DNA of 64,000 bases from positions 127 to 64,126 of the forward strand of contig CAZKMO010000003.1 in NCBI GenBank assembly GCA_964554015.1. The letters run 5' to 3'. Below the pieces are notes generated by a model. That model did not search any database, had not been told where the DNA came from, and saw nothing but the letters and a program-made list of their open reading frames with translations. A program made the translations under genes and the position numbers. Below are positions 41,908-63,427 of this stretch, in pieces. The DNA comes from an uncultured bacterium. GTDB taxonomy: Bacteria > Zhuqueibacterota > QNDG01 > CAYUAG01. The first letter of the stretch is position 1. Every line of letters starts with the position of its first letter.

Positions 41908-41929
41908 TTATCTCTAATTTTTCTTCTAT

Positions 41930-45266: not shown

Positions 45267-45276
45267 GAAATCCTCT

Positions 45277-47091
45277 TTATTCTATAACTATAGCATCAAA
45301 TTTACATACTTCTTTACAGCTTCCGCATTGGGTGCAGAGTGTTTTATCGATAACGTGAGGTTGATTTTTTTCTCCCTTGATAGCTTCAACCGGACATGCC
45401 TTCAGGCAGACCCTACAGCCAGTGCATTTTTGAGTATCAATTCGATAGGTAATCAGTGCCTTACATACACCTGCCGGACATTTCTTATCTTTTATATGCG
45501 CTTCATATTCTTCCGGAAAATACTGTATTGTGGTCAGCACCGGATTAGGGGCTGTTTGACCCAATCCGCACAAAGAACCATTTTGAATGGTTGTTGCCAG
45601 TTCCTTAAGACGGGTCACATCACCTTTCTGTCCCCTCCCTTCTGTGATGGCATTTAAAATTTCCTTCATTCTCTGCAGTCCTACCCGGCAGGGAGTACAC
45701 TTGCCACAGGATTCATCTGCCAGGAAGGATACAAAATACAGGGCAACATCAACCATACAGGTATCCTCATCCATAATAATGAGGCCACCGGATCCCATAA
45801 TAGCACCTGCTTTATTCAATTCCTCATAATCTATGGGCAGATCAATAAGTGAAGCGGGAATGCATCCACCCGAAGGGCCCCCTGACTGTACTGCTTTAAA
45901 TTTCTTACCATTCGGAATACCCCCTCCTATACTATAAATTATTTCCCGCAGAGTAATACCCATTGGTACCTCTACCAGTCCGGAATTATTAATCTTACCG
46001 ACCAGGGAAAAAACTTTTGTTCCCTTACTCTTTTCTGTTCCCAATCCGGAAAACCAAGCACTTCCCTTAAGAATAATCATGGGTACATTGGCCCAGGTTT
46101 CCACATTATTGATATTGGTAGGCTTTCCCCATAAGCCCTTCTCAGCCGGATAAGGAGGTCGTGATCTCGGTCTTCCCACTTTTCCTTCAATGGAAGCCAT
46201 GAGTGCCGTCTCCTCCCCGCATACGAATGCTCCTCCTCCCCGAATTACTTCAATTTCAAAATCAAATCCTGTATTAAATATATTTTTACCCAACAGGCCG
46301 TATACAGTTGCTTGTTGAATTGCCTTCTTAATCCTGTCAACGGCAAGGGGATATTCGTCCCTTACATAGATAAATCCCTGATGTGCTCCCATAGCTTTGG
46401 CCCCAATAGTCATTCCCTCTATTATAGAATGGGGATCAGCTTCCAGGAGAGATCTATCCATATAGGCTCCCGGATCTCCCTCATCTGCATTACAGATCAG
46501 ATATTTTACTTTTCCCTTAGATTTTCGACATAATTCCCATTTCAATCCAGTAGGAAAGCCAGCTCCTCCCCTGCCCCGCAGTCCGGAAGTTTTTATCTCA
46601 GATAGTATCTTTCCAGGAGTCATTGAGGTTAATGCCTTAGCTAAGGCGGCATATCCATCAAAACTTATATATTCATCAATGCTTTCCGGATCCATTCTTC
46701 CCCTGTTCCTGAGTACAACCAAACGTTGATATTTGAAAAATTCAACATCCTGCATAGTGGGAATTTGTTTTTTTTCTTCCGGGGGAATATACATTAACTT
46801 TTTTACAGGATTACCTTTTAAAAAATGTTCTTCCACCAACAAGGGAATATCCTTTTCTTGGAGTTGTTGATAGAAGATATTATCCGGTTGTACAACTGCA
46901 ATTGGTCCCCGTTCGCAGAATCCATGACAATCTGTTTCCCTGACCTGCACTTTATTCTCAAGTCCTTGTTTTTTAATCTCTTGAATAAAAGTATTCTTGA
47001 TATCCCGGGATGCATGAGAATGACAGGATGTCCCTGCACAAATTAGTACTTGGATTTTAGGGGTCGCTTTTTTTGTTTTCATTCTATTCAT
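45277..47091 (-). CDS. NuoF-like NAD(H)-binding FMN iron-sulfur subunit (HydB/HndC/FdhB type) with an N-terminal thioredoxin-like 2Fe-2S domain and a C-terminal 2x[4Fe-4S] ferredoxin
   Basis: GGAGFPTGLKW, CGKCTPCRVG, C-terminal CTGCRVCLKACP and CTQCGSCKEVC. Confidence 0.85.
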   Translation of the reverse strand: MNRMKTKKATPKIQVLICAGTSCHSHASRDIKNTFIQEIKKQGLENKVQVRETDCHGFCERGPIAVVQPDNIFYQQLQEKDIPLLVEEHFLKGNPVKKLMYIPPEEKKQIPTMQDVEFFKYQRLVVLRNRGRMDPESIDEYISFDGYAALAKALTSMTPGKILSEIKTSGLRGRGGAGFPTGLKWELCRKSKGKVKYLICNADEGDPGAYMDRSLLEADPHSIIEGMTIGAKAMGAHQGFIYVRDEYPLAVDRIKKAIQQATVYGLLGKNIFNTGFDFEIEVIRGGGAFVCGEETALMASIEGKVGRPRSRPPYPAEKGLWGKPTNINNVETWANVPMIILKGSAWFSGLGTEKSKGTKVFSLVGKINNSGLVEVPMGITLREIIYSIGGGIPNGKKFKAVQSGGPSGGCIPASLIDLPIDYEELNKAGAIMGSGGLIIMDEDTCMVDVALYFVSFLADESCGKCTPCRVGLQRMKEILNAITEGRGQKGDVTRLKELATTIQNGSLCGLGQTAPNPVLTTIQYFPEEYEAHIKDKKCPAGVCKALITYRIDTQKCTGCRVCLKACPVEAIKGEKNQPHVIDKTLCTQCGSCKEVCKFDAIVIE

Positions 47092-47539
47092 ACTTTTTTA
47101 ATACTTTCTCTAGTTTTTTCTGATTCAGTTTTCCATGAAAATCTCCATCTATCACTACCACCGGTGCCAAGCCACAACAGCCAACACAGCGCACCGCCTC
47201 CAAGGTAAAACGCTTATCTTTGGTGGTTTCACCTGGATTAATCTCTAAATCCCGCTTTAGTTTATCCAGCAGTTTTGCTCCTCCTTTTACATGACAGGCA
47301 GTACCCAGACATACATTAATGGTATGACGTCCCCGGGGAGCCAGACTGAAAACTTTATAAAAGGTTGCCAGCGAATATAAACGTGACAAAGGTACTTTAA
47401 GTTCTTTGGCAACAAGGGATAGTTCCTCTTGAGGAAGATATCCCTTATGTTTCTGAATATCCTGGAGAATGGGAATTAATCCTGATTGCTTTTTTCCGTA
47501 TTGCTCCATGATTTTATTAATTGCTGACAAAAAAAACAC
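47084..47539 (-). CDS. NuoE-like thioredoxin-fold 2Fe-2S subunit (HydC/HoxE type)
   Basis: CLGTACHVKG...VRCVGCCGLAPVV cluster motif. Confidence 0.85.
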   Translation of the reverse strand: MFFLSAINKIMEQYGKKQSGLIPILQDIQKHKGYLPQEELSLVAKELKVPLSRLYSLATFYKVFSLAPRGRHTINVCLGTACHVKGGAKLLDKLKRDLEINPGETTKDKRFTLEAVRCVGCCGLAPVVVIDGDFHGKLNQKKLEKVLKKYE

Positions 47540-47563
47540 CTCCCAGAATTAGTAATAAAATTG

Positions 47564-48076
47564 TTATTCCTTAGGGTAATCATGTATGTTAGAGAGAATT
47601 TTATCCTTGATTGTTTCAATTATTGCCGGCAAAGAAGATTTTATTTCCGGAGTGCAATTCTCATTAAAAGTCGAAATATCCTTGACTACCACTCCGTAAA
47701 TGGTGATATCACCGGTTATATTCATATTTATTTTCCTGGCTAAGCTAATTGCTTCCTTTAAGGATACCTGGTGTCTGGTCCAGGCAGAACCGCCTTTGAC
47801 ATCATTTAAGTTCATTTCAATTAAAGAACCGATGGATTCATCATTAGAAAGAACGGAATCGATTAAAATTACCCTTTTATAATCTGCCATAACATCTATC
47901 AGTTCCAATCCACCCATACTTGCCTCTTGGGTAACAATGTCGGGATTATCCAGGACTTTTTCAAGCTCTCTTACAATATAAATCCCCACACCATCATCAG
48001 AAAGTATGGTATTACCCAGTCCGATAATGAGTGTTTTCCCTTTTCTGTCTTCTGTAGTTAACAAGGAATGCCTCAT
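47564..48076 (-). CDS. NiFe-hydrogenase maturation endopeptidase (HyaD/HybD/HycI family)
   Basis: TLIIGLGNTILSDDGVGIYIV N-terminal family signature; 170 aa; 4-nt overlap with the fumarate hydratase beta subunit. Confidence 0.7.
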   Translation of the reverse strand: MRHSLLTTEDRKGKTLIIGLGNTILSDDGVGIYIVRELEKVLDNPDIVTQEASMGGLELIDVMADYKRVILIDSVLSNDESIGSLIEMNLNDVKGGSAWTRHQVSLKEAISLARKINMNITGDITIYGVVVKDISTFNENCTPEIKSSLPAIIETIKDKILSNIHDYPKE

Positions 48077-48630
48077 ACCTTTTGATATGTATCGATACCG
48101 ACCTTATATAAATCTCCACCCCGAACATCATTGACCACTACTGCAGGAAAATCAACCACTTCCAAACGGCGGATGGCTTCCGGACCCAGATCTTCATAGG
48201 CAACAAACTCAGCTTTTTTTACTGCTTTGGCCATTAAGGCTGCTGCTCCTCCAATAGCGCCAAAATAAACTGCTTTATATTTTTTCATGGCTTCTATAAC
48301 TTCCTGTCCCCGGTTTCCTTTGCCTATCATACCTTTCAGCCCATATTCAATAAGTCGGGGAGCAAAAGGATCCATTCTATAACTGGTGGTGGGACCGATT
48401 GAACCAATCGGTTTACCCGGTTTTGCCGGTGCCGGACCAGCGTAATAAATAATTTGATTTTTCAGATCAACCGGTAAATCCTTCCCCTTGTCCAAGGCAT
48501 CAATTAATCTTTTATGGGCTGAATCTCTACCGGTAAAAATTACACCTGTGATCAAAACGGAATCACCTATGGTAAGATCTTCAACTATTCCATTGGTCAA
48601 GGGAGTAATGATTTTTTTTATCGTTGACAT
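48073..48630 (-). CDS. Class I (Fe-S) fumarate/tartrate hydro-lyase, beta subunit
   Basis: FumA/TtdB C-terminal-domain family: DLTIGDSVLITGVIFTGRDSAHKRL. Confidence 0.85.
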   Translation of the reverse strand: MSTIKKIITPLTNGIVEDLTIGDSVLITGVIFTGRDSAHKRLIDALDKGKDLPVDLKNQIIYYAGPAPAKPGKPIGSIGPTTSYRMDPFAPRLIEYGLKGMIGKGNRGQEVIEAMKKYKAVYFGAIGGAAALMAKAVKKAEFVAYEDLGPEAIRRLEVVDFPAVVVNDVRGGDLYKVGIDTYQKV

Positions 48631-48655
48631 AGTATACTCCTCGATAAATATATAT

Positions 48656-49498
48656 CTAAATTATCACTTCTTTATGACGGGCAACATGGCACTGCATATT
48701 GACTGCGACCGGAAAACTGGCAATATGACAGGGATGCACTTCTATATGTACAGCCAGAGCAGTGGTGCTGCCTCCGAAACCCTGGGGTCCTATTCCCAAC
48801 TTATTAATCATTTCCAGGAGTTCATCCTCAAGATCAGCATACATTTTATCCGAATTTTTTGAACCCAGGGGTCTAAGCAGAGCTCGTTTAGCAATTTCTG
48901 CGCATTTATCAAATGTTCCGCCAATTCCAACGCCAACCACCACGGGTGGACAGGGATTGGCTCCTGATTTTCTCACTCTTTCCACTACAAATTCTTTAAT
49001 TCCTTCAATTCCAGCAGCCGGAGCCATCATCTTCACCTCACTCATGTTTTCACTACCTCCTCCTTTGGGCGCAAAGGTAATTTTGATTTTTTCTCCGGGT
49101 ACAATGTCAGTATGAATGACAGCCGGAGTATTATCACCAGTGTTATTTCTCTTCAGGGGATCGGCAACCACAGATTTACGAAGATATCCTTCTTGGTAAC
49201 CTTGTCTGACTCCTTCATTTATAGCTTCGATAAAATCTCCTCCGGTCAGGTGAACCTCCTGACCTAATTCAATAAAAAAAACTGCATATCCGGTATCCTG
49301 GCATAACGGTACCTTATCATTCTTGGCAATCTCAATATTTTCCAGTATTTTGCTTATTACTTCCCTGCCGGTGGGTGATTCTTCTTTTTTTTCTCTGTCT
49401 TGCAATGTTTTTATAACAACATCATCCAAATAATAGTTAGCGTCGATACAGAGTTTTTTAACTGCCTGGGTAATGACTGAAACATCAATTTCTCTCAT
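48656..49498 (-). CDS. Class I (Fe-S) fumarate/tartrate hydro-lyase, alpha subunit
   Basis: CQDTGYAVFF motif with cluster-ligating cysteines. Confidence 0.85.
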   Translation of the reverse strand: MREIDVSVITQAVKKLCIDANYYLDDVVIKTLQDREKKEESPTGREVISKILENIEIAKNDKVPLCQDTGYAVFFIELGQEVHLTGGDFIEAINEGVRQGYQEGYLRKSVVADPLKRNNTGDNTPAVIHTDIVPGEKIKITFAPKGGGSENMSEVKMMAPAAGIEGIKEFVVERVRKSGANPCPPVVVGVGIGGTFDKCAEIAKRALLRPLGSKNSDKMYADLEDELLEMINKLGIGPQGFGGSTTALAVHIEVHPCHIASFPVAVNMQCHVARHKEVII

Positions 49499-49690
49499 GT
49501 ATTACTCCTTTATATACTTGAAGGTACCTTAATTTTTCTTGTTTAGTCTATTATTGTTCCATCGGAATCGGGATCGATATCGCAATCGTTATTATGATTA
49601 ACTTAATGACTAGGAAATTTTTCTTATGCATGAAATATTTTTCCTTTTTTCAATGCCGATTCCGATACCGACTTTAAATTAAAAAATATT

Positions 49691-51379
49691 TCAAACCGCT
49701 TTATACGGAATATATTCCGGTTTATACATTTTGCTTTTCATAAACTCAAGAATATCTTTTGGTTCTTTCTCCCAGGCTAATCCCTGAGAATAGGCAACTT
49801 GGGCCACTGAAACCGCAATATGGGCCGATATTTCCCGAATATCATCTAAATCAGGATATACCTTTCCTTTTAGCAATGATTTTTTTTCTACCCTTCCTGC
49901 CAAGGTTTTGGCTGCCGCATAAAACATGGAATTGGTAATTCGAGTTGCTTCACATACTATTGCTCCTAAACCCAGTCCAGGAAAAATATACATGTTATTT
50001 CCTTGACCGGTTTCATAGGTCTTTCCCTTATATTTTAGGGGCGGAAAAGGACTCCCGCTGGCATAGATTACCTTCCCATTTGTCCATTTATAGGCTTGTT
50101 CCGGAGTGCATTCACTTTTCGAGGTCGGGTTTGATAAAGCAAAAATTATGGGCCGGTCCACATGCTTATTCATTTCACTTACTACTTCCTGATTGAATGC
50201 TCCTGTTTGGGTGCTAACTCCGATTAAAACCGTTGGCTTAACCGTCTTGACTACCTGTAACAGGTCCAGAGTGTCCAAATCATTTCTGGCATAAGGAATT
50301 TTATGTTCAGCCAGTGTTCCCTTTCGTTTCATACTGACCAATCCTTTGCTATCCAATAACCAGAATTGTTTGCGGGCATCTGCTCGGCATAATCCTTCTT
50401 CCACCATGCCGGCAACAATAAGATCTGCAATACCAATGGAAGCAGATCCAGCCCCATAGAAAACAATTCTTTGATCCTTAAGTTTCTGATCAGTAATCCG
50501 CATGGCCGCCAATAAACCAGCCAGGGCTACGCTACCGGTCCCCTGAATATCATCATTGAAGCAGAGAAGCTTATTCCGGTAACGATTGAGGAGTAAAAAA
50601 GCATTGTCATTGCTAAAATCTTCAAACTGAACCAGGGCTCGAGGCCATCTGTCATGTATGGTTGCCATACATTCATCCATAACTTCAAGAAAATCATTAC
50701 CGGTTAAGCGGAGATGCTTTTCACCCAGATATAAAGGATCATGAAGGAATTTCTCATTATTGGTACCGACATCCACCACAATGGGAAGTGTTTTGCAGGG
50801 ATATAATCCAGCACAGGCAACATAAAGAGCCAGCTTGCCAATGGGAATCCCTATTCCATTTACTCCCAGATCACCTAACCCTAATATCCGGCTTCCATCT
50901 GTTATGACAATTATATCAATTCTATCTTCTGGCCAATTATTTATTCTTTTTTTAATATCACCCTTGGCATTAGATGATATATACATTCCCCGGGGTCTTC
51001 TGTATATATGTCCGTATTCCTGACAAGCTTCACCTACAGTGGGTGTATAGATTATGGGAGTCATTTCTTCCAAATTCTCCAAAATCAACCGGTAATACAG
51101 AATCTCATTACGATCATGAAGTGCTTCTAAGAAGATATATTTTCCCAGATTAGTATCTTTACGGTTATAATTTTCCTTGGCTCGATTCAATTGTTGTTCT
51201 ATAGTGGACTGATGAGGAGGAATCAAACCAAACAAATTTAGTTCTTCCCGTTCGGAATTTGAAAAAGCAGTTCCTTTATTCAGCAGAGGATCTCTGATTA
51301 TATCCAATCCTCGTCTAGTAATAGGAAAGTACTTTAGCCTCTGTTCATCAACTTCAAATCTTTTTAATTCTTGGTTCAT
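49691..51379 (-). CDS. NAD(P)-dependent malic enzyme
   Basis: IYTPTVGEACQEYG, FNDDIQGTGSVALAGLL. Confidence 0.9.
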   Translation of the reverse strand: MNQELKRFEVDEQRLKYFPITRRGLDIIRDPLLNKGTAFSNSEREELNLFGLIPPHQSTIEQQLNRAKENYNRKDTNLGKYIFLEALHDRNEILYYRLILENLEEMTPIIYTPTVGEACQEYGHIYRRPRGMYISSNAKGDIKKRINNWPEDRIDIIVITDGSRILGLGDLGVNGIGIPIGKLALYVACAGLYPCKTLPIVVDVGTNNEKFLHDPLYLGEKHLRLTGNDFLEVMDECMATIHDRWPRALVQFEDFSNDNAFLLLNRYRNKLLCFNDDIQGTGSVALAGLLAAMRITDQKLKDQRIVFYGAGSASIGIADLIVAGMVEEGLCRADARKQFWLLDSKGLVSMKRKGTLAEHKIPYARNDLDTLDLLQVVKTVKPTVLIGVSTQTGAFNQEVVSEMNKHVDRPIIFALSNPTSKSECTPEQAYKWTNGKVIYASGSPFPPLKYKGKTYETGQGNNMYIFPGLGLGAIVCEATRITNSMFYAAAKTLAGRVEKKSLLKGKVYPDLDDIREISAHIAVSVAQVAYSQGLAWEKEPKDILEFMKSKMYKPEYIPYKAV

Positions 51380-51532
51380 GTAACTCCTTTAAAATAGAGT
51401 GAAAAATTATTTATTATGCCACGGTTTGATACAGATAAAATTCAGAAATAATATTAAAGAATAAATAATTACAGAATAAATCCCTGTACATCTGTGGCAA
51501 ATTCACAAAAATTATATATAGAGCGAACATTT

Positions 51533-52195
51533 TTACAACCATTCCACCACTTTTTTTACTAATTTCTCAATTCCTGGGGCAATATCAGCTATTCCGGGAC
51601 CAAGCATATAGGCAGGTGTGGATACAATTCTGTGGTTTTCATCAACAGCTATCTCATCAACTTTACATGGTTTATGTTTTGCCCGAAAAAACTCTATATC
51701 TGAAGCTGTTTTACTGTCATTACCAATAGTAAGTAGAGGATGAATATCAGTATCTTTTAAGGCAACTGCTACTAAAATGGGAGCGATACACATTACTCCC
51801 AGAGGTTTTCTTGCTAGCACGGTATTATGAATGATATTTTTAACATCAGGATCAATAATACAATTGCGTCCTTTCACATCATAATCACTTAAATTTGTAG
51901 CTGCTCCTGCTCCACCGGGCAGAATTAAACCATCGAAATCATTAACGGATACTGAAGTTAAATTCCGTACCTCACCCCTGGCTATTCTGGCTGATTCTAT
52001 CAGTGTATTTCGCTTTTCCGACATTTCATTTTTGGAATTATGATTAATTACCTGGAATTGATTTTTATCTGGTGCAACGGGAATAACATCAACAATTTTT
52101 TTATTCAAAAAATATAAAGTCAGGGTTGCTTCCTGAATTTCTGATCCATCAAAAACTCCACAACCACTTAATAAAACACCAACTTTTTTATTCAT
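51533..52195 (-). CDS. DJ-1/PfpI superfamily protein, ElbB-like
   Basis: VGVLLSGCGVFDGSEIQEA N-terminus typical of ElbB. Confidence 0.7.
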   Translation of the reverse strand: MNKKVGVLLSGCGVFDGSEIQEATLTLYFLNKKIVDVIPVAPDKNQFQVINHNSKNEMSEKRNTLIESARIARGEVRNLTSVSVNDFDGLILPGGAGAATNLSDYDVKGRNCIIDPDVKNIIHNTVLARKPLGVMCIAPILVAVALKDTDIHPLLTIGNDSKTASDIEFFRAKHKPCKVDEIAVDENHRIVSTPAYMLGPGIADIAPGIEKLVKKVVEWL

Positions 52196-52235
52196 AACCT
52201 TTATCTCTATTAAAAAAATTGTTTTCTAAATATAT

Positions 52236-52265
52236 AAAGCCTAATATTCCAAACTATTAGGCTTT
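52236..52265 (-). terminator. Terminator hairpin closing the Hdr-like operon
   Basis: Perfect 11-bp inverted repeat AAAGCCTAATA / TATTAGGCTTT with an 8-nt loop, followed by a T-rich tract; 29 nt downstream of the last MvhD stop. Confidence 0.5.
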
Positions 52266-52293
52266 ATTTATGCTTATCCCTTTTTCGCTTATT

Positions 52294-52719
52294 TTAAATA
52301 AAAATTTTTCTTTTTGCCGGATTTTCACCCATATTTTTTATTTTTTGGGTAAATTCGGTAGTAACTTTGACAAATCGAGCCCCTTCTGCAGCAGAAATCC
52401 AGGCTAATTTCAGTCGTTCAGATTCCAATCCCAGGCACTCAAAAATTTTAGATAAAATAATAAATCTCCGTCGTGTATGGTAATTCCCGGATTGATAATG
52501 ACAATCTCCCGGGTGACATCCTCCGATTAATACCCCATCTGCTCCATGAAAAAACGATTTCACCAGAAAGACCGGATTCACTCTGCTGGAACACATAACC
52601 CGGATTGGTAAAATGGAAGGAGGGTATTTCATACGACTGGTTCCGGCCAGATCGGCTCCAGAATATGTACACCACTTACATAGAAAACTTACTATTTTTG
52701 GCGTAAAATCTGATGTCAT
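52294..52719 (-). CDS. MvhD-like (methyl-viologen-reducing hydrogenase delta subunit / FlxD-type) [2Fe-2S] protein
   Basis: FLCKWCTYSGADLAG...IRVMCSSRVNP...GADGVLIGGCHPGDCHY. Confidence 0.8.
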   Translation of the reverse strand: MTSDFTPKIVSFLCKWCTYSGADLAGTSRMKYPPSILPIRVMCSSRVNPVFLVKSFFHGADGVLIGGCHPGDCHYQSGNYHTRRRFIILSKIFECLGLESERLKLAWISAAEGARFVKVTTEFTQKIKNMGENPAKRKIFI

Positions 52720-52763: not shown

Positions 52764-53891
52764 TTATTCTTCTCCGATTTCTTCAAATTCCTCTTCTTTG
52801 AATATAGTTACCGGCACCTGTTCATTTACATCTCTTCCCGGTATATATTCAAATATTTCCGCTACTTTTTCACCACATTTTCTAAAAATTACTGAAACTG
52901 GTATATCAGACGGGCATACTTCCGTACATTGACCACAGCCAATACAAGAAAAACTCATATGGCTTAATCTTCCTATTTGATACAATATGGTATCCGAGGG
53001 AAGCCGCAGTCCTCCCTTGCGGGATAATTCCTGTTCCATTATAGTATTGTCATAGTCATAGGTAGAGGACTCAAAATCGCAGAGTACACAATAGCATATG
53101 GGACAGACCCGGCTGCAGGCATGACATCCAATACATCTGCCAAATACATCTATCATACCGTCTAACCCGGTATCTTGTATTTTAATCTGTTTAAAAAGCT
53201 CCTCTTTATATTTTTTTCTTCTTTCCCTAATCTGATCATAACCAGTTCTATCAAATTCATCCTCTGTTTTTTCTACTTCAAATCCCTGAAGTATTTCTTT
53301 GGCCTTATCCGAATGTAAAAATATCTTGCAGGTACTATCAGCACCTGTTTCTCCTAGCAGGGAAACCGTTGCATCAGCATTAAAGGGAACAAAATATTCA
53401 CACGCTTTGCATATTTCTCTGATATGCTCAAACTCATTACCGGCGGCAACCGTTTTCCCATAATCAGGGAGCATGGTATCGACTTTATTTTCAACCGTTG
53501 CGGTTAAGGGTAAAGCTCCTCCGCAGGTATAAGAAATTAAGAGAAAATTTTCTAATTTTCCCTGGGAGCGCTTCACTAGTTCAATAAAAGAACGCAGTTC
53601 ACAGGGTTTTATCACTGCTGCTACCGGCATTTCCATTTTAATCATATTGGAAAGCATTTTACCAGCATTAACCGGCATCAAAGGATGTAAAGGTACTACA
53701 TCATGCAATAATTCCGGATCTGTTATCAGGGCATAATCAAATTTGCCCTGTTTTTTTGTTTTACGCAAACTACACACGCCACTCACTTTCTTATTTTTCA
53801 GCAGGTAGGTTAATAAATCAATTAATCCCGCTTCCGTACTCTTTTTTATGGTTAACACCTGATCCATACCTAATCTCCTATGCTTCTGCAT
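52764..53891 (-). CDS. FrhB/FdhB-like flavo-iron-sulfur subunit with a C-terminal 2x[4Fe-4S] ferredoxin (paralog 2)
   Basis: Paralog of the next gene; CKACEYF block comparable to FrhB CKICKDY; CIGCHACSRVCPICYC and CIGCGQCTEVCP. Confidence 0.55.
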   Translation of the reverse strand: MQKHRRLGMDQVLTIKKSTEAGLIDLLTYLLKNKKVSGVCSLRKTKKQGKFDYALITDPELLHDVVPLHPLMPVNAGKMLSNMIKMEMPVAAVIKPCELRSFIELVKRSQGKLENFLLISYTCGGALPLTATVENKVDTMLPDYGKTVAAGNEFEHIREICKACEYFVPFNADATVSLLGETGADSTCKIFLHSDKAKEILQGFEVEKTEDEFDRTGYDQIRERRKKYKEELFKQIKIQDTGLDGMIDVFGRCIGCHACSRVCPICYCVLCDFESSTYDYDNTIMEQELSRKGGLRLPSDTILYQIGRLSHMSFSCIGCGQCTEVCPSDIPVSVIFRKCGEKVAEIFEYIPGRDVNEQVPVTIFKEEEFEEIGEE

Positions 53892-55026
53892 CCTCTACCA
53901 GCTCTTGAATTCCTTTAACTTCCTCCAGTTTAAACGTTTTGAGAGGAATAGGTTCACCCTTATTTTCCCCGCTGGAATAACTGAATTGCTTCTGGGTATT
54001 ATGAGCTACATAACTGAAAATTTCTGCAACCGGAATTGATACTGGACAGGCATCTGTGCATAAACCGCAGGAAACACAGGAAAGACTCATATGCGACATT
54101 CGTCCCACCTGAAACATTATTCTGTTTTGCGGTAAAGAGATACTCCCTCTTTTTTTTGCCTTTAACATCGTTAAGTCGGTTCCAGAAGTTACCGATTCTG
54201 AATCAAAATAACACTGACGGCAGTAACAAATCGGACAGGCACTTTGGCAATTATGACATCCTATACAATCAGAAAAAGTGGCAAGCAAACTGTTGAATCC
54301 TTCCACCATCTTTTTTATTTGGGTAAACCTTCCTTTTTTCTGAGCTGCACGTTTATCTTTTATTTCTTGGATACCGTTAGCCCATGCTGATACAGTGTGG
54401 GAAGCTTCCATACCAATTTCTTTTAATACCAGATTACCTCTATTACTATTGGCTATTAAAAACATAGTATTATTTTGATCATGAAATAAGGTAAAATGCA
54501 GATCACTGACCGGCAGTAGAGAAAATTGATCGCATATCTTACATACTGGTTTTATGGATTTATTCTGAAAATCCAATTTTTTTAAAATATCGTTAAATTT
54601 TTTCTCCCCCTTTTCCGGATCATTCAGATAATCTTCCATGGGTAAAGCACCCGGACAATCATAACTAATGAGAGTAACATTTTCCAAATTAACCTGATTC
54701 AATTTTGAAAGTTCGATAGTTGCCCTGATTTCACACGGCCTCATTAAGGCAGCAATTTTAAGCATAGATTGTCCTTTACGGGAAAAGCTGCTCAAGGCCC
54801 TGGCTCCCTGTATAGGCATTATGGGCGCTGCTGGATCAGCTTCAGTCAGTAATTTTTCATCTTTTACCAGAATCCAGGCATAGGAATCCTTAGCCGGTAC
54901 TCTCATAGGAACCAGTACGGCATCAACAGATTTACTCTGTAGCATCTTTTTTAAAATATCCACTATGGAATCTCTATAATCCTTATTTGAAGAAATTTTC
55001 ACTCCCTTAGTTTGGATTTTCTTCAT
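53878..55026 (-). CDS. FrhB/FdhB-like flavo-iron-sulfur subunit with a C-terminal 2x[4Fe-4S] ferredoxin (paralog 1)
   Basis: N-terminal SIVDILKKMLQSKSVDAVLV resembles FrhB GGIVTGLL...GAVV; CKICDQF as in FrhB; CIGCHNCQSACPICYC and CVSCGLCTDACP. Confidence 0.55.
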   Translation of the reverse strand: MKKIQTKGVKISSNKDYRDSIVDILKKMLQSKSVDAVLVPMRVPAKDSYAWILVKDEKLLTEADPAAPIMPIQGARALSSFSRKGQSMLKIAALMRPCEIRATIELSKLNQVNLENVTLISYDCPGALPMEDYLNDPEKGEKKFNDILKKLDFQNKSIKPVCKICDQFSLLPVSDLHFTLFHDQNNTMFLIANSNRGNLVLKEIGMEASHTVSAWANGIQEIKDKRAAQKKGRFTQIKKMVEGFNSLLATFSDCIGCHNCQSACPICYCRQCYFDSESVTSGTDLTMLKAKKRGSISLPQNRIMFQVGRMSHMSLSCVSCGLCTDACPVSIPVAEIFSYVAHNTQKQFSYSSGENKGEPIPLKTFKLEEVKGIQELVEDAEA

Positions 55027-55037: not shown

Positions 55038-56726
55038 TTAACTGATGGCTTCTTTCATTTCTTGGTGTATCTGAATAGTAGTAAAATGTTTAGCACGAAT
55101 AGCACCGGAGGGACAACTCCCCACACAATTACCACATCCCCGACAAATTGCCTCATTAACAACACATATTCCCCGCTCAGGATCAAAAGTAATGGCTCCG
55201 TAACAACATACCTCCCTACAGGTCTGGCATCCCATACAGAAATCTGGGATAATTTCAGAAACCTTTACTTCAGGAATTATCTTCTCACCCGGTATCAATT
55301 GAGTCACTATCTTTCCCTGTACTGCTTTGGCCTGCAATACTGACTCTGATATGCCCTGGGGTCCATGACATCCTCCGGCTATATAAATTCCTTCTAAGGA
55401 AGTTCCTATCGGATTAAGCTGAGAATGCGCTTCCTGAAAAAATTTTGTTGGATGTAAAGGTACATTCAAAAGTTCGGCTAATTCTTCTGTGCCTTCTGCA
55501 GGTACCATGGCAGGGGCAAGAATAATCATATCCAGATCCGCTTCTTTTTTACTCCCATTGACTTCTGTATAGGTGATGTGGGTTTTTTTAGTTGTTATAT
55601 CACTGATGCGTATAAAATCCACCTTCTTTTTTGCCATAGTATCAAAATATTCCTGATCGTATTTATGGGGAAGACATAGATCCTTATAAAAATCTTTGAT
55701 TAAAATAGTATCAGACTGATCTTTTAAATAGGATATAATTTTTAACATATAATTACAGCAAATCCGAGAGCAATACCCTCTATCCTCTCTTCCCACACAA
55801 TGTATCAATCCCACGGATTTGGGCTCTTTTCCTGATTTAAGCACAATTTTACCCTTTGCTTTCATCATTTGTTCAATTTCCAGGGCAGTATAGACATTAT
55901 CATCTTTACCATAAGCATGCTTTTTCAATTTTTCTGTTGGCATTAAGGCAAAACCAGTAGCAAGCACAATAGCACCGACTACAAATTCATTTGCGGTTTG
56001 ATCCTTTTTTGTACTTTTTACTGTTACTTCGAAATTACCAAAAAAACCTACGGCATTTTCTAATTTTGAGTCAGTAAAAACTTCTATATTTTCATTTTCC
56101 TGTATGGCAGTAATTTTCTTTGCCACCAAATCAGTATTATTCTCCTGACGGGGCAATAAATTTTTAAATGACTGGGCATTACCCCCTAAAATAGAATTTT
56201 TCTCAACCAGATACACTCTTCTTTGTTTACTGGCCAGAGAAAGTGCTGTTTCCATTCCCGTTATTCCACCTCCGATAACCAGAACATTGGGATTACTGTC
56301 CAGTTGTTTCTCTATAAGGACAGATTGATGTAAAACCCGGTTTATGGCAGCTTTAATGTAACTAATTGCTTTCTCAGTAGCTTTCTTTTTATCAGGTATC
56401 ATCCAGGCGCATTGTTCCCGGATATTAACCATTTTATACAAATAAGGATTTAACTTGGTTTTTTTGCAGATATTAATAAAGGTAATCTCATGATCCCGGG
56501 GAGAACAGGCGGCAATAACCAGGTGAGTTAATTCATTATCTTTTATCTCCTTTTCTAGATACTCCTTGCCTTCATTAGAACAAAGCAGTTTATAGGGTTT
56601 GATAATTAATTGTTTATTTTTATAATCTTCCGATGATGATATTCTTTCTATAACTTCATCTATATTAATATTATCTGCGATATTGGGACCGCATTCACAT
56701 ATATAAATACCGATTTTCGTACTCAT
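55038..56726 (-). CDS. HdrA-like FAD flavoprotein, long form (N-terminal Cys domain, thioredoxin-reductase-like FAD domain, CSRICC motif, two C-terminal 4Fe-4S motifs)
   Basis: IGIYICECGPNI N-terminus; VLVIGGGITGMETALSLA; GYCSRICCNYM; CMGCQTCREVC and CRGCGNCVGSCP. Confidence 0.8.
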   Translation of the reverse strand: MSTKIGIYICECGPNIADNINIDEVIERISSSEDYKNKQLIIKPYKLLCSNEGKEYLEKEIKDNELTHLVIAACSPRDHEITFINICKKTKLNPYLYKMVNIREQCAWMIPDKKKATEKAISYIKAAINRVLHQSVLIEKQLDSNPNVLVIGGGITGMETALSLASKQRRVYLVEKNSILGGNAQSFKNLLPRQENNTDLVAKKITAIQENENIEVFTDSKLENAVGFFGNFEVTVKSTKKDQTANEFVVGAIVLATGFALMPTEKLKKHAYGKDDNVYTALEIEQMMKAKGKIVLKSGKEPKSVGLIHCVGREDRGYCSRICCNYMLKIISYLKDQSDTILIKDFYKDLCLPHKYDQEYFDTMAKKKVDFIRISDITTKKTHITYTEVNGSKKEADLDMIILAPAMVPAEGTEELAELLNVPLHPTKFFQEAHSQLNPIGTSLEGIYIAGGCHGPQGISESVLQAKAVQGKIVTQLIPGEKIIPEVKVSEIIPDFCMGCQTCREVCCYGAITFDPERGICVVNEAICRGCGNCVGSCPSGAIRAKHFTTIQIHQEMKEAIS

Positions 56727-56743: not shown

Positions 56744-58030
56744 TTATCCTAATAATGAAAATACTTCTCCGACTGCAGATTCTGCCTGAATAACAGAATC
56801 CTCAATATCTTTGGGCCCTTCTGCGCAGCCAACAGTGAAAATTCCATCCACAGAGGTTTGAACCGTACCGATATACCCTTTCCGGGTTTGAAAAAATCCC
56901 TTGCGGTCACGTTCAATGCCTAAGATATCGGCAAGCTCTTTTGATGTTTTTGCCGGAACCAGAGCACAGGAAAGAATTACCATATCTACGTTCAGGGAAT
57001 TCTTAGAACCTTTGCCAGCAGTTAATTTAACCTGTAATTTTCCGTTATTCCCGGCTATTTGTACAATATCCGGGGCAGACTGAAAAATAAAAGTACTATT
57101 GGAATCTTTTATTTTATTATAAAAGCTCTGATAGCTTTTATTAGGAACACATATATCAGAATAAATATTATATACCGTTGCCTCCGGCAATTTATCTTTT
57201 ATAAAATGGGCATATTTAAAGGAATACATACAACAGACCCCGGAACAATACCCCAGCTCTTTTCTGCCTATACAATGGACTATTGCTACTGAATCAGGTA
57301 ATTTTTTCCCTTTCCGGAGTAACAGTTCACCTGAAGTGGGGCCATTAGAAGCATAGAGTCTCTCGAATTCCATGGAGGTGTAAACATTAGGTAATGTACC
57401 ATATCCAAAAGCAGAAAGTAGCTTACCTCCATATAAATCAAATCCGGTGGCGATTATAATTGCCCCAACCTCGATTTTTACCTGTTCATCCTTATCAGAA
57501 AAATTAATAGCCCCAAACATACAAGCTTCCGCACAGGCATTACAGCTTTTTTTTCCGGATAATCGTAAACAATGCCCGGAATTAATAGCAGGGACATTAG
57601 GAAGGGAACCGTCACAGGGTACATAAATAGCCTTCTTTTTGCCCAGATTTTCTTCCCATTCATTCTGTAAACTAACCGGACAGGGTTCATAGCAGGCTCC
57701 GCATCCAATGCATTCTGTCAAACTTACATATCTAGCTTTTTTATTGATGGTGACAGTAAAATTGCCAACTTGACCGTTAACAGCCTTAACTTCACTTAAA
57801 GTCATAACTTCAATATTATCATTTTGCAGTACATCCTGCTGTACAGGGGCTACCATACAGGTTGAACATTCTAAATTGGGAAAGCTTTCCTCGTTTTTTA
57901 TGGTATTTCCTCCAATGATGGGAAGTTTTTCAACCAGGACAACTTTCTTGCCGGCCTTGGCAAGCATAAGACTTGCCTGCATACCGGCTATTCCTGCTCC
58001 AATTATAAGAACATTATTTGAGTTACTCAT
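56744..58030 (-). CDS. HdrA-like FAD flavoprotein, short form (QmoA-like, inserted ferredoxin only)
   Basis: VLIIGAGIAGMQASLMLA; CIGCGACYEPCP; GYCSGVCCMYS. Confidence 0.75.
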   Translation of the reverse strand: MSNSNNVLIIGAGIAGMQASLMLAKAGKKVVLVEKLPIIGGNTIKNEESFPNLECSTCMVAPVQQDVLQNDNIEVMTLSEVKAVNGQVGNFTVTINKKARYVSLTECIGCGACYEPCPVSLQNEWEENLGKKKAIYVPCDGSLPNVPAINSGHCLRLSGKKSCNACAEACMFGAINFSDKDEQVKIEVGAIIIATGFDLYGGKLLSAFGYGTLPNVYTSMEFERLYASNGPTSGELLLRKGKKLPDSVAIVHCIGRKELGYCSGVCCMYSFKYAHFIKDKLPEATVYNIYSDICVPNKSYQSFYNKIKDSNSTFIFQSAPDIVQIAGNNGKLQVKLTAGKGSKNSLNVDMVILSCALVPAKTSKELADILGIERDRKGFFQTRKGYIGTVQTSVDGIFTVGCAEGPKDIEDSVIQAESAVGEVFSLLG

Positions 58031-58047: not shown

Positions 58048-58497
58048 TTAATAATAGGGATTTTCATTCAAAGGATTGGGACCTAACTTTTTAATTTTTT
58101 CCGTAAAACTGTTAACTACATCAGCATATCTATTACCTTCTGAGGCTGATATCCAGGCTAATTGAAGCCGCTCCGGATCAATTTTAAGTGTTTTAAACAC
58201 ACTCTTCAACATTGCATATCTGCGGCGGGTATAATAATTCCCCTTATCATAATGACAGTCACCTGGATGACATCCACCAATTAATATACCATCCGCTCCA
58301 TTGAAAAAAGTGGTTAATACCAAATTAAAATCAATCCGACTGGAACACATTACCCGAATAACAGTTAAATTAGGAGCAATCTCCAATTTGGAAGAGCCTG
58401 CTAAGTCCGCGGCTGCATAAGTACACCAATTACATAGGTACCCTACTATTTTGGGAGTAAATTTTTCTTTTCCATTAGATTCCATTTTAAATCCCAT
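58048..58497 (-). CDS. MvhD-like [2Fe-2S] protein
   Basis: YLCNWCTYAAADLAG...IRVMCSSRID...GGCHPGDCHY. Confidence 0.8.
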   Translation of the reverse strand: MGFKMESNGKEKFTPKIVGYLCNWCTYAAADLAGSSKLEIAPNLTVIRVMCSSRIDFNLVLTTFFNGADGILIGGCHPGDCHYDKGNYYTRRRYAMLKSVFKTLKIDPERLQLAWISASEGNRYADVVNSFTEKIKKLGPNPLNENPYY

Positions 58498-58597: not shown

Positions 58598-58822
58598 TTA
58601 AATTTGTATTTGTGCTTTATGTTTTCCCTCGGCATCAGTGGTGCACATCAGTAATGTTTTTCCTGTCTTTTGACACCAGGCTTTAATATCATTGGGAAAG
58701 GATTCACAATCTGCTTGAACTTCCAGAGTATCACCCGGATTTAACTGAGGGAGCATGGCTGCCACTTTTAAAATTGGTTGGGGACATTTTAATCCTAAAG
58801 TATCAAGTGTCTTTACTGCCAT
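58598..58822 (-). CDS. tusA: TusA-like sulfur carrier
   Basis: LDTLGLKCPQPILK carries the canonical CPxP motif; 74 aa. Confidence 0.8.
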   Translation of the reverse strand: MAVKTLDTLGLKCPQPILKVAAMLPQLNPGDTLEVQADCESFPNDIKAWCQKTGKTLLMCTTDAEGKHKAQIQI

Positions 58823-58993: not shown

Positions 58994-59386
58994 TTAAAAC
59001 GAAAAAGTCAAAGTTGCATCTTTGGCTTCATTGATAAAGGTGGTCGCACCGACTACTTCAATCCCGTCATTTAAATCCTCCCGGGTAAAATCATGCACAT
59101 CAAAGGCTAATTCACACACCAGTAACCTTCCTCCTAAGTTGAGAAAACCTTTGTATAATTCTTCCAGATCCGGAAGTGATGGTGCAGCTTGGTTTAATTC
59201 TTGAAGTTTTCCTTTTTTCATAGCTGGTGCTCCCCCCGGACAAAAGAAAATAATAACGTCATCCCCGCTGGCAACAGCTGATGACCCCAATATAAAAGGG
59301 GGATACACATTTTTGGTTTCTGAACCATTTACGGTAATTGCCATTTTTGCCATCTTTTTACCTCCACTGTTTTTCAGCAGATACAT
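58994..59386 (-). CDS. DsrE/DsrF-like (COG2210-type) sulfur-relay protein
   Basis: KMAITVNGSE...VYPPFILGSSAVASGDDVIIFFCPGGAPAMKKG matches the COG2210 pattern (AII.SSG...A...A.A...G..V..FFTFWG); candidate active Cys in FFCPGG. Confidence 0.55.
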   Translation of the reverse strand: MYLLKNSGGKKMAKMAITVNGSETKNVYPPFILGSSAVASGDDVIIFFCPGGAPAMKKGKLQELNQAAPSLPDLEELYKGFLNLGGRLLVCELAFDVHDFTREDLNDGIEVVGATTFINEAKDATLTFSF

Positions 59387-59459: not shown

Positions 59460-59852
59460 TCAATACACTATTGGTCCCAGATTATTTATATCATCAACAA
59501 AATTATTTACAATCTGCTGCAATTTTGCTGATTCCCCTTTATCAACCCATTCCAGTCTCAATCTGTCCGGATTAATACCGATTTGGTAAAGCATCATTTT
59601 TAATAAGGTAATTCTCCCCACAGTTTTATAATTTCCATCATGCTCACATTTTTCCTCAGGACAGGCGGTTATTAACACACCACTCACACCTTTCTGAAAG
59701 GTTTGTAAAATTAATTCCGGTGAAATACGACCGGAACACATGCTTACCAGAAATTTATGCTGATTATCAGTTTGCTGGGATAAGGTTCGGGAAAATTGCA
59801 ATCCCGGATAAGTAGACCAGTTACAATAAAACACAACAGTCTTTGTTTTCAT
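59460..59852 (-). CDS. Divergent MvhD-like protein (first motif CNWS instead of CNWC)
   Basis: VVFYCNWSTYPG...SMCSGRISPE...ITACPEEKCEHDGNY; start overlaps the upstream stop (ATGA). Confidence 0.6.
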   Translation of the reverse strand: MKTKTVVFYCNWSTYPGLQFSRTLSQQTDNQHKFLVSMCSGRISPELILQTFQKGVSGVLITACPEEKCEHDGNYKTVGRITLLKMMLYQIGINPDRLRLEWVDKGESAKLQQIVNNFVDDINNLGPIVY

Positions 59853-60412
59853 TCATTAACTCCTTCCAGAAATTCTTCTACCTGTTCATATAATTCTTTC
59901 TGACTTAAGCCAAATCCTTCCCGGCTGTAGGCTGCACCAGAGGGGCAGGCTGCCACACAGCAACCACAACTCTGGCATTTAACTCTGTCCACTACGATTT
60001 TATCGTTTTTTTCATCATAGGATCTGGCTTCATGTTTACAGACTGAGATACAAATCCGGCAACGACTGCACAGATCATCATTGGTTCGGGAGGTAGTTCC
60101 CAAAGCTTCAAATCCTGCCTCTACAAAATCAGCTTTGGCATCATTTAAAATATCGGTAATATCAACTTTAGCTGAACAGGCAGCATCACAGCGTTTGCAC
60201 ATATAACATTCAAATATTCTTTCAACTATTTCTTCATCCGGTTTGATATTACCCTGAAGCATACCATACAGCATGATTAATTTCCCCCTGGGAGTATCTG
60301 ATTCCCATCCGGTTATTTTAAAAATATGACAGTTTTCAAAACAATAGCCACAGCGTATACATACATGTAATTTATCCTGCCATTTTTTCAAACTTTCAAA
60401 TTTCATTTTCAT
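59849..60412 (-). CDS. HdrC-like polyferredoxin with four CxxCxxCxxxC motifs
   Basis: CIRCGYCFENC, CYMCKRCDAAC, CSRCRICISVC, CQSCGCCVAAC; TGA stop. Confidence 0.7.
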   Translation of the reverse strand: MKMKFESLKKWQDKLHVCIRCGYCFENCHIFKITGWESDTPRGKLIMLYGMLQGNIKPDEEIVERIFECYMCKRCDAACSAKVDITDILNDAKADFVEAGFEALGTTSRTNDDLCSRCRICISVCKHEARSYDEKNDKIVVDRVKCQSCGCCVAACPSGAAYSREGFGLSQKELYEQVEEFLEGVNE

Positions 60413-60430
60413 TCCTCAGTTTTGAATAAA

Positions 60431-61498
60431 TCAATTTAATGCTTCCGCCACTAAATCAAGTACATTTAATACCTTTATTTTTCCATTGTATTCAGCAGCC
60501 ATATTCTTAAGATTTAATTCACAAGTAGGGCATAAGGTTACTAAATAATCTGCCTTGGTCTCCACTGCTTGTTTAACCCGATTGAAAGCTAACTGTTGAG
60601 ATAATTTTTTATCCGTAACCAGTAATCCCCCTCCTCCTCCACAGCAGGTTGCTTCCTTACCAAAGGTAGACATTTCAATAACTTCAGCACCTATTTCATT
60701 CAACAACCATCGTGGTTCGTCAACCATATCCAAACCTCTGGCCACATTACAGGGATCATGATAGGTTACTTTCAGGTTAAGTTTTTTAATCTTATTTTTA
60801 TAATTCGGAAGCAGTTTCACAATTTCATTTATAATATATTTTGCCTTCAAATCAGGATATTTCTTCTTAATGAAAAATACACAGGTAGTACAGGCGCATA
60901 TAATTTCATCATTGGTATCAGGAATAGACTCTCTGAATGTATTTTGCTGTTCAGAAAAACCTTTTTTATTTCCTAAAACCGCAAAGGGCATACCACAGCA
61001 GGTTTCTTCAAAAGTTTTTGGTTTAACTCCTAATTTCTCCAAAATATGAAGATATTTTTCCGAATCCTGTTTTCTCTCCAATAATCTGCACCCTAATAAA
61101 ACAGTTTTTTCCCCTTTAAATTCAGGAGCAGTTAAGTTTTGATTAAAAATATTACCACTCTGTTGAATTTTATCTAAAAGGAGATCGTGTGCTTCATAAT
61201 GATAACCAGCCTCATACAAATCAGCCCGCACGGCCGATATGATATCCGGTATGGAAACATTGGCAGAACATCTTTCTACACAATCCTTACAAAACGTGCA
61301 TTCATATAATTTCTGGGCAATAAAATCGGAAGGTTCTAATTCATCATATAATAAACCATAACTAAGCACAATCTTGCCCCGAGCTCCATCGACTTCCCAC
61401 CCTTGTTCCTGAAATACCGGACATCCTTCAAAACAGTAACCACAGCGTATGCAGCGATTGAGATCATCAACCCAATTTTTTAGATTTTTTGTTTCCAT
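60431..61498 (-). CDS. HdrD/GlcF-type iron-sulfur subunit: 2x[4Fe-4S] ferredoxin plus two CCG domains
   Basis: CIRCGYCFEGCPV, CTFCKDCVERC; CCG domains ...CCGMPF...CTTC... and ...CCGGGGG...CPTCE. Confidence 0.8.
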   Translation of the reverse strand: METKNLKNWVDDLNRCIRCGYCFEGCPVFQEQGWEVDGARGKIVLSYGLLYDELEPSDFIAQKLYECTFCKDCVERCSANVSIPDIISAVRADLYEAGYHYEAHDLLLDKIQQSGNIFNQNLTAPEFKGEKTVLLGCRLLERKQDSEKYLHILEKLGVKPKTFEETCCGMPFAVLGNKKGFSEQQNTFRESIPDTNDEIICACTTCVFFIKKKYPDLKAKYIINEIVKLLPNYKNKIKKLNLKVTYHDPCNVARGLDMVDEPRWLLNEIGAEVIEMSTFGKEATCCGGGGGLLVTDKKLSQQLAFNRVKQAVETKADYLVTLCPTCELNLKNMAAEYNGKIKVLNVLDLVAEALN

Positions 61499-61532
61499 TC
61501 CACCTTTCCCAAAATAGTATTAAGGTAAAAGA

Positions 61533-62975: not shown

Positions 62976-62996
62976 TAAATTATAATTTTATTACAC

Positions 62997-63410: not shown

Positions 63411-63427
63411 TTGATATAATTATAATT

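Follow-up and report, generated by a model that had tools for sequence, protein, structure and literature searches.

Organisation of the FdhB1-FdhB2 Gene Pair and Its Module

The window analysed here, a 64-kb stretch of DNA (64,000 nucleotides of contig CAZKMO010000003.1) from an uncultured bacterium, carries on its minus strand two adjacent genes encoding FdhB-like proteins, FdhB1 (open reading frame (ORF) 1, 53878..55026, 382 amino acids (aa)) and FdhB2 (ORF2, 52764..53867, 367 aa from the ATG at 53867). FdhB1 is composed of an FrhB-type domain, in which the flavin adenine dinucleotide (FAD) loops are replaced, and of a C-terminal domain with 11 Cys residues, and FdhB2 has the same architecture. 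Both genes belong to a core module with the order DsrE-TusA-MvhD-HdrA(short)-HdrA(long)-FdhB1-FdhB2-MvhD.

The two ORFs are real paralogues, with 31% identity across 362 residues (E 3e-67), and 11 nt separate the end of the 562-aa HdrA gene from the FdhB1 start. The original prediction, which placed two paralogous ORFs directly after the HdrA genes, was thus borne out, and the FrhB-like and ferredoxin motifs that it quoted were all found in the ORFs (DSIVDILKK...VDAVLV, CKICDQF, CIGCHNCQSACPICYCRQC and CVSCGLCTDACP). It also described a 14-nt overlap of the two genes, which is obtained when the first ATG of FdhB2 is taken (375 aa, 52764..53891). The second ATG, at position 53867, is preceded 7 nt upstream by AGGAG and gives the 367-aa protein, a length in agreement with the 97%-identical sequences P0125/P0126 and with orthologues of 364-369 aa. 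Because of this ribosome-binding site and orthologue-like length, the overlap is probably an artefact of the choice of the first ATG. With the better-supported start, 10 nt lie between FdhB1 and FdhB2, and the ribosome-binding site overlaps the FdhB1 stop codon. A recent tandem duplication was considered as the origin of the pair and rejected, since about 45 other 50%-identity clusters score nearer to the FdhB1 profile than FdhB2 does.

Immediately upstream of the pair, HdrA-long (55038..56726, 562 aa) comprises an N-terminal domain, a thioredoxin-reductase-like FAD domain, and a C-terminal ferredoxin domain. It aligns with residues 12-244 and 325-653 of archaeal HdrA, and both the inserted ferredoxin domain and the DCSMC cysteines are missing. 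HdrA-short (56744..58030, 428 aa) has only the FAD domain and the inserted ferredoxin domain, corresponds to residues 141-555 of archaeal HdrA, and retains a Cys pair. The two proteins have complementary domain sets and together represent a split HdrA; related loci encode a protein of about 1016 aa, called HdrL, in which the short and long types are fused. The module is completed by an upstream MvhD connector (58048..58497, 149 aa), a second MvhD as its last gene (52294..52719, 141 aa), a TusA-family sulfur carrier with a GLKCPQP motif (58598..58822, which at 74 aa falls below the 80-aa limit of the ORF list), and a DsrE/DsrE2-like sulfur carrier (58994..59386, 130 aa), all encoded on the minus strand.

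FdhB1 and FdhB2 Are Full-Length Homologues of Archaeal FdhB and ElpB

The resemblance to FrhB/FdhB was not recovered by the Pfam models proposed for its verification. No Pfam FrhB match was found for ORF1 at E ≤ 0.01, and ORF2 scored below the gathering cut-offs of both FrhB_FdhB_C (PF04432, 23.2 bits for a cut-off of 23.3) and FrhB_FdhB_N (PF04422, 17.6 bits for a cut-off of 22). Among the orthologues of ORF1, 26 of 34 matched PF04432 at E ≤ 0.01 (best 7e-08). Since the Pfam and NCBIfam scans of the two proteins otherwise gave only generic Fer4 matches, homology was established through sequences of the PDB and through folds.

Compared with solved chains, ORF2 matched FdhB 9t1s_M (7e-32), ElpB 8rvu_E (8e-28), and FdhB 7bkb_E (1e-25), collinearly and over the whole length. 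The same three chains were found with a profile of the ORF1 family built from 34 sequences (1e-40, 9e-33, and 4e-29, respectively), for which Fsr and other FrhB-like chains were weaker matches (1e-5 to 1e-3). AlphaFold2 models of FdhB1 and FdhB2 had predicted local distance difference test (pLDDT) values of 77 and 76 and a predicted template modelling score of 0.80, and their best Foldseek matches were again ElpB and FdhB (E 2e-15 to 2e-14, TM 0.64-0.65), followed by FrhB, Fsr, the Ethanoperedens F420-reductase subunits, and HCAR. The match to FrhB 4ci0_C reached 1e-6 and 4e-7 for the two models, and 6qgr_B, Fsr, and HCAR were likewise retrieved, all with a probability of 1.00. FdhB1 and FdhB2 are therefore full-length homologues of the archaeal Hdr-associated FdhB and ElpB subunits, and the predicted kinship stands by way of solved structures and fold.

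The C-terminal domain of the FdhB/ElpB type, CxxCxxCxxxCPxCxCxxC ... CxxCxxCxxxCP, is present in both proteins. Because it is collinear with that of the archaeal chains (380-414 aa), the Cys-rich region is part of the normal FdhB/ElpB architecture. What had been described as an extra 2x[4Fe-4S] domain is this standard domain, and it contains 11 conserved Cys rather than eight.

More remote relatives were also detected. The FdhB2 profile matched sulfhydrogenase-beta/AsrA-like proteins over the full length (hhalign probability 98.3%, E 1.6e-14), and the FdhB2 model had a Foldseek match to the SHI beta subunit 9nf0_B. The NCBIfam models of AsrA and sulfhydrogenase beta were missed by a wide margin (TIGR02910, 21.9 bits versus 323; NF040833, 16.4 versus 750; NF040829, 17.5 versus 690), the partial scores coming from the local ferredoxin motif alone. 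A role of the FlxB/FlxC type was considered for FdhB1 and FdhB2 and rejected, since in related superclusters this role is held by an AsrA-like protein, to which FdhB1 and FdhB2 show remote kinship only, and by a 321-aa protein.

Cluster Ligands Are Conserved and Two FAD-Contacting Loops Are Replaced

We aligned 76 FdhB1 and 73 FdhB2 sequences with 11 canonical bacterial FrhB-like proteins encoded in the same superclusters and with archaeal FdhB/ElpB. Fifteen Cys columns were at least 95% conserved in both the FdhB1 and FdhB2 families, and all 15 are Cys in FdhB 9t1s; one His, common to archaeal FdhB, was also conserved in both. The Cys residues of cluster 1 are invariant (C98/C124/C162/C165 in ORF1 and C89/C115/C153/C156 in ORF2, in the numbering of the 367-aa protein) and align with the PC(D/Q), xxC, and CxxC motifs of FdhB/FrhB-like proteins. 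The 11-Cys domain of FdhB1 spans C254 to C327. Beyond these 15 ligands, no conserved Cys was found in either family.

In FrhB, three loops enclose FAD, one around the pyrophosphate (residues 23-30, with 24-QDGG), one at the adenine (71-77, with G73-T77), and one carrying the cluster ligand Cys134 (131-138), and the wall of the F420 channel is formed by the helix and three-stranded sheet of subdomain 128-188 (PMC3930138). Two of these three loops are replaced in both proteins. The GG motif was present in all 11 canonical FrhB-like proteins and in 3/3 archaeal FdhB/ElpB sequences, and was found in only 1 of 76 FdhB1 and in none of 73 FdhB2. The G[ST] loop, also present in 11/11 canonical and 3/3 archaeal proteins, was absent from every FdhB1 (0/76) and FdhB2 (0/73) and was replaced by P-x-x-P-x-M in 65/76 and 69/73 of them, respectively, a motif seen in no canonical protein (0/11) and not in the single full-length archaeal sequence (0/1, 9t1s). 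Independent HMMER alignments paired the GG and GS motifs with the same residues. The third FAD-contacting loop, which holds the cluster Cys, is kept (SYDCPG in FdhB1 and SYTCGG in FdhB2).

The F420-channel lid is 24 residues shorter in FdhB1 and FdhB2. The median spacing between the second and third Cys of cluster 1 is 38 residues in both families, compared to 59 in canonical and 62 in archaeal proteins, and AlphaFold2 predicts helices alone for the shortened segment, without the three-stranded sheet. The absence of GG and G[ST] extends beyond the aligned families: of the best 150 clusters matched by the FdhB1 profile, 120 had full-length representatives, and 117 of these lacked both motifs. 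A representative from Desulfosalsimonas propionicica (P0279, 50% cluster) is also without them.

These results suggest that FdhB1 and FdhB2 keep a four-cluster wire and have lost the flavin/F420 site. With the FAD-holding and substrate-channel elements replaced or deleted, neither protein is likely to offer F420 or NAD(P)H a site of hydride transfer.

HdrA and MvhD Are Conserved Genomic Partners

The FdhB1 profile matched 1432 representatives of 50%-identity clusters at E ≤ 0.001, of which 230 at E ≤ 1e-30. Named members of the clade include D. propionicica and a metagenome-assembled genome (MAG) labelled Methanomassiliicoccales. A scan of the GTDB species-representative genomes, a set that does not contain the genome of the window, gave 183 genomes with a relative, from which 80 loci were kept, all in MAGs, with phyla assigned by record titles. 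The majority belong to Cloacimonadota, and the others to Neomarinimicrobiota, Krumholzibacteriota, Eisenbacteria, Fermentibacteria/Aegiribacteria, Delongbacteria, WOR-3, and a few further groups. The module was also found in KSB1 and in one contig labelled Methanomassiliicoccales, and in total in at least 10 candidate phyla named in MAG records. The loci closest to the window (71%, 68%, and 67% identity) come from MAGs described as "uncultured bacterium" and have the same flanking genes.

To describe synteny, the ORFs of 85 loci were labelled with phmmer, and the denominators below are the loci with enough sequence. FdhB2 lies directly downstream of FdhB1 in 77/78 loci. HdrA-long is directly upstream of FdhB1 in 67 of 70, and HdrA-short is found further upstream in 58 of 61. 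An MvhD gene precedes these in 54/58 loci and another follows FdhB2 in 65/74, while upstream TusA (37/51) and DsrE (27/48) genes are less constant. On the evidence of gene order, HdrA and MvhD are the genomic partners of FdhB1 and FdhB2. No FdhA/ElpA-like gene adjoins the pair in the window, and L085 is the only labelled locus in which an FdhA-like ORF was identified, at a non-adjacent position.

The loci fall into four types. Type I is a collinear supercluster of about 20 kb found across phyla (L001, L003, L004, L005, L020, L029, L041, L053, L055, L062, L068, and L078). It begins with a regulator, TusA, a YedE/TsuA-like transporter, three rhodaneses, an anion porin, DsrE, TusA, and the module, and continues with the 1016-aa HdrL, MvhD, a 321-aa FdhB-like protein, AsrA/HydB-like, AsrB/HydG-like, and HdrC-like proteins, and a canonical FrhB-like protein whose FAD loops are intact. 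The 321-aa protein is a third FdhB-like paralogue (hhalign 99.7%). No CCG/HdrB gene was found within 10 kb in these superclusters, which look like a cytoplasmic thiosulfate/sulfane-sulfur redox system.

Type II, to which the window belongs, has a GlcD-like FAD oxidase, an HdrD/TfrB-like CCG protein, a ferredoxin, and MvhD upstream, and ElbB, malic enzyme, fumarase, and then a NuoF-like gene downstream; in the window, NuoEF, a NuoG/FdhA-like protein, and NfnAB lie further downstream. Type III, which lacks TusA, is found in Cloacimonadota as a second copy fused to the GlcD/HdrD set; in L032, L036, L044, and L045, this set adjoins FdhB2 of the second module copy. Type IV has the order HdrL-MvhD-FdhB1-FdhB2-MvhD. 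In addition, L087, a 437-kb contig labelled Methanomassiliicoccales, contains the eight-gene unit alone without any CCG gene. A single FdhB-like gene of the same clade occurs in D. propionicica (L086, JACDUS010000004.1), in the order HdrL(1146 aa)-MvhD-FdhB-like-HdrL(1152 aa)-HdrC-HdrB. This cultured sulfate reducer would be a tractable organism for studying the function of the clade.

A variant of MvhD was observed in L001 (6550-6978, 12217-12426, and 16081-16281) and in many Cloacimonadota and Delongbacteria, with an in-frame TGA at GG-TGA-HPGDCH. The MvhD proteins of the window read GGCHPGDCH, with Cys where the related loci have TGA. Because 75 short MvhD ORFs end in TGA, the TGA-containing genes probably encode selenocysteine forms.

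Proposed Function and Alternative Explanations

We propose, with a probability of roughly 60%, that FdhB1 and FdhB2 are flavin-less [4Fe-4S] relay subunits and not sites for F420 or NAD(P)H. The pair would descend from an FdhB/ElpB-type subunit, the electron-donor arm of the HdrA-MvhD bifurcating complex of methanogens. In the Elp-Hdr complex (8RVU), ElpB carries FAD and four [4Fe-4S] clusters and oxidises F420H2, and electrons pass through the ElpB clusters EB1, EB2, and EB4 to the N-terminal clusters of HdrA, then to the [2Fe-2S] cluster of ElpC (MvhD) and the bifurcating FAD (PMC12350162). The FrhB-type site and the 11-Cys domain would likewise hold four [4Fe-4S] clusters in total, as in ElpB/FdhB, so that each FdhB-like subunit may act as a flavin-free one-electron wire of about four clusters. 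The pair would be made together with the split HdrA, the two MvhD connectors, TusA, and DsrE. If the Elp-Hdr and Fdh-Hdr structures are taken as a guide, one FdhB-like subunit or more may dock on the N-terminal domain of HdrA-long, and electrons would presumably reach the partner HdrA flavin via the MvhD [2Fe-2S] cluster. At its far end, the wire may join ferredoxin or exchangeable partner modules, which would be the GlcD-like/HdrD-like dehydrogenase in the window and HdrL with the AsrA/AsrB-like NAD(P)H module in the sulfur superclusters. The presence of TusA and DsrE suggests that protein-bound sulfur is among the substrates on which the system as a whole acts.

This proposal retains part of the role first assigned to the pair, that of an NAD(P)H- or ferredoxin-interacting entry or exit module of the Hdr complex. 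Homology to FdhB/ElpB agrees with an electron-transfer arm of an HdrA/MvhD complex, and a relay interacting with ferredoxin is plausible. The NAD(P)H part was not supported, since no nucleotide-binding domain was detected and the FAD-holding and channel elements are replaced or deleted.

Several observations weigh against the relay proposal. The replaced loops are strongly conserved (P65, M70, P71, and W51 in FdhB1; P59, P62, and M64 in FdhB2), and the former flavin pocket may therefore bind something else. Loss of the flavin is read from sequences and from AlphaFold models that contain no ligands, and the C-terminal domains were modelled at low confidence (pLDDT 33-60). The single canonical docking domain, that of HdrA-long, has to be set against two FdhB-like and two MvhD proteins. 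The taxonomic labels of MAGs may also include binning errors.

The conservation of the replacement motif is suggestive of a functional site and, together with the retained FrhB fold and third loop, would fit a flavin or another two-electron cofactor bound in a remodelled pocket, the proteins then serving as an entry or exit site for NAD(P)H or another hydride carrier. We regard this explanation as rather unlikely. The pyrophosphate and adenine loops are gone in all but one of the 149 orthologues, the lid is shortened, and no Rossmann/NAD-binding match was obtained with Pfam or NCBIfam in FdhB1 or FdhB2. Moreover, dedicated NAD(P)H-binding proteins are separately encoded, NfnAB and NuoF in the window and AsrB/HydG-like proteins and HdrL in related loci.

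More speculatively, the entire DsrE-TusA-MvhD-HdrA-HdrA-FdhB1-FdhB2-MvhD module might be a self-contained, HdrB-independent enzyme of a novel type coupling ferredoxin to the reduction or oxidation of protein-bound sulfane sulfur, with the sulfur-reactive site in the former flavin pockets or at the Cys pair of HdrA-short, a tentative and on present evidence improbable proposition. Add-on modules would then bring NAD(P)H or 2-hydroxyacid oxidation. If true, it would provide a cytoplasmic thiosulfate/sulfur electron sink in many uncultured fermenters of sulfidic habitats.

It is also conceivable that FdhB1 and FdhB2 are themselves catalytic, the former flavin pocket beside cluster 1 acting on sulfane sulfur delivered by TusA and DsrE as a persulfide reductase or oxidase of a novel type in place of HdrB/CCG. 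This is consistent with the position of TusA and DsrE directly upstream in the window and in most loci, with the L087 unit, and with the superclusters, where the YedE/TsuA-like transporter, rhodaneses, and porin accompany the module and CCG genes are lacking within 10 kb. However, neither family has a conserved Cys outside the cluster ligands, the pocket residues are unlike between FdhB1 and FdhB2, the window and the type II and III loci do encode a CCG protein (HdrD-like), and the Cys pair of HdrA-short could serve instead. A catalytic pocket of this kind is thus doubtful.

The JGI/KEGG family name, "formate dehydrogenase subunit beta", suggests another partner, the 844-aa NuoG/FdhA-like protein encoded 7.5 kb downstream on the same strand (42732-45266) with NuoE and NuoF, in a bacterial Fdh-Hdr complex. 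Bacterial hdrA-mvhD-fdhB-fdhA clusters do exist (PMC2702500, PMC5736913). In the window, though, six unrelated genes (elbB and those of malic enzyme, fumarase A/B, the hydrogenase maturation protease, NuoE, and NuoF) and a predicted hairpin intervene. The 844-aa protein falls under the cut-offs of both the NuoG and Fdh-alpha models and has its own NuoEF partners, and the only FdhA-like ORF labelled, that of L085, is not next to the pair. We therefore consider this arrangement very unlikely.

Finally, genuine F420-dependent subunits, as implied by the JGI and NCBI family names and by the F420 reactivity of the nearest solved relatives, are hardly credible given the loss of the FAD and F420-channel elements, the absence of the host lineages from those listed with F420 biosynthesis genes (PMC8498797), and the lack of any match to F420-biosynthesis Pfam families among the ORFs of at least 120 aa in the 64-kb window.

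Comparison with Known Systems

ElpB of the Elp-Hdr complex of Methanothermobacter marburgensis (8RVU) and FdhB of Fdh-Hdr complexes (Methanospirillum hungatei 7BKB; 9T1S), the best sequence and fold matches of FdhB1 and FdhB2, have the same length and a collinear architecture, share the 15 cluster Cys and the one His, and are encoded with HdrA and MvhD. They differ in that the archaeal proteins carry FAD and oxidise F420H2 (PMC12350162), whereas the FAD loops are replaced and the lid is shortened here. In addition, the pair in the window has no adjoining FdhA/ElpA or HdrBC gene, consists of tandem divergent paralogues, and is accompanied by a split HdrA. FrhB (4CI0, 4OMF, 6QGR), Fsr, the Ethanoperedens FwdI/ACDS zeta proteins, and HCAR share the core fold and the four-Cys [4Fe-4S] site (Foldseek E 1e-6 to 1e-5), but these FrhB-family modules are without the C-terminal three-cluster domain and conserve QDGG, the G73-T77 loop, and the lid (PMC3930138).

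The FdhB proteins of sulfate reducers and Chloroflexi (Desulfobacterium autotrophicum loci V-VIII, Desulfobacula toluolica, DscP3, and L086) are likewise encoded beside MvhD and an HdrA-type flavoprotein. They are found as a single copy beside fused HdrL and HdrBC, in contrast to the obligate pair with split HdrA, two MvhD, TusA, and DsrE described here. The occurrence of FdhB genes beside hdrA/hdrL-mvhD, with or without fdhA, was described in D. autotrophicum in 2009 (PMC2702500), and HdrBCA-MvhD-FdhBA clusters are known in Chloroflexi and Desulfobacula (PMC5736913). In Cloacimonadota, Williams et al. read an "Hdr" cluster with TusA, a sulfurtransferase, and a transporter as sulfur oxidation, leaving the FdhB-like subunits unanalysed (PMC8542988). 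FdhB beside bacterial hdrA/mvhD is therefore already known, and what is new is the flavin-site loss suggested by the sequences, together with the obligate FdhB1-FdhB2 pair and the split HdrA; no report of FAD-loop loss, of the pair, or of the split HdrA was found in a limited search of the open-access literature.

Fe-S subunits of the AsrA/sulfhydrogenase beta type (HydB, ShyB), which belong to Flx-like NAD(P)H modules, are flavin-free relays that work beside a separate flavoprotein. Their homology to FdhB2 is remote, if full-length, and no AsrB/HydG-like partner adjoins the pair in the window. In QmoAB, two unequal HdrA paralogues act together, a likeness to the paired HdrA paralogues of the module. 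The sHdr sulfur-oxidising system, comparable in gene context only, combines an HdrA-type flavoprotein with TusA, DsrE, and rhodaneses (PMC11094781). It differs by HdrB1C1B2C2 and LbpA and by having no FdhB-like or MvhD protein, whereas the module described here, found in fermentative anaerobes, has no CCG subunit in most of its loci.

Flavin-based electron bifurcation by HdrA plays a central part in how anaerobes conserve energy, but outside methanogens most of its partner modules have no assignment. The present analysis corrects a widespread annotation, "F420 formate dehydrogenase beta", for a family in which the 230 clusters (50% identity) matching at E ≤ 1e-30 are concerned. A review of F420 lists no Cloacimonadota or Marinimicrobia among the lineages with F420 genes (PMC8498797), and the occurrence of an apparent F420 enzyme in lineages not known to make F420 would be explained by the loss of the F420/FAD site with retention of the Fe-S wire. 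The eight-gene module, often inside a thiosulfate/sulfur-trafficking supercluster, is defined here in a testable form, and in the abundant uncultured anaerobes that inhabit digesters and sulfidic waters it may connect sulfur-carrier proteins with bifurcation.

Other Genes of the Window

The recurrent upstream partners of the module are all on the minus strand and comprise a third MvhD (59460-59852), an HdrC-like ferredoxin (59849-60412), an HdrD/TfrB-like CCG protein (60431-61498), and a GlcD-like FAD oxidase (61533-62975). The same minus-strand region (59460-63997) also contains genes for succinyl-CoA synthetase alpha and a thioesterase. On the other side (48073-52195, minus strand) are found the glyoxalase ElbB (287 bits, above the cut-off), malic enzyme, and class I fumarase A/B, and the module is thus flanked on both sides by C4-dicarboxylate and 2-hydroxyacid genes.

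The interval from the last MvhD gene to elbB contains a perfect inverted repeat with a 13-bp stem (52234..52267), detected by pattern match only, which is a possible operon or transcript end or a regulatory hairpin. Scans for sigma-70 promoters (46 versus 42.7 in shuffled sequences) and terminators (11 versus 9.2) were not enriched over shuffles, and for this reason they were not used to draw operon boundaries. Neither the Rfam nor the tRNA scan of the window gave a match, so that it offers no taxonomic marker.

Further downstream (40504-48076, minus strand), a hydrogenase maturation protease gene is followed by NuoE, NuoF, the 844-aa NuoG/FdhA-like molybdopterin protein, and NfnAB/sulfide dehydrogenase-like genes; the window showed no hydrogenase large subunit that could pair with the maturation protease. 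Finally, signalling genes are unusually dense at 1392-7753 and 15093-27005, where several hybrid PAS histidine kinases, two of them of about 820 aa in tandem, are found together with two sigma-54 activators, a GGDEF response regulator, a CheB methylesterase, and single-domain receivers.

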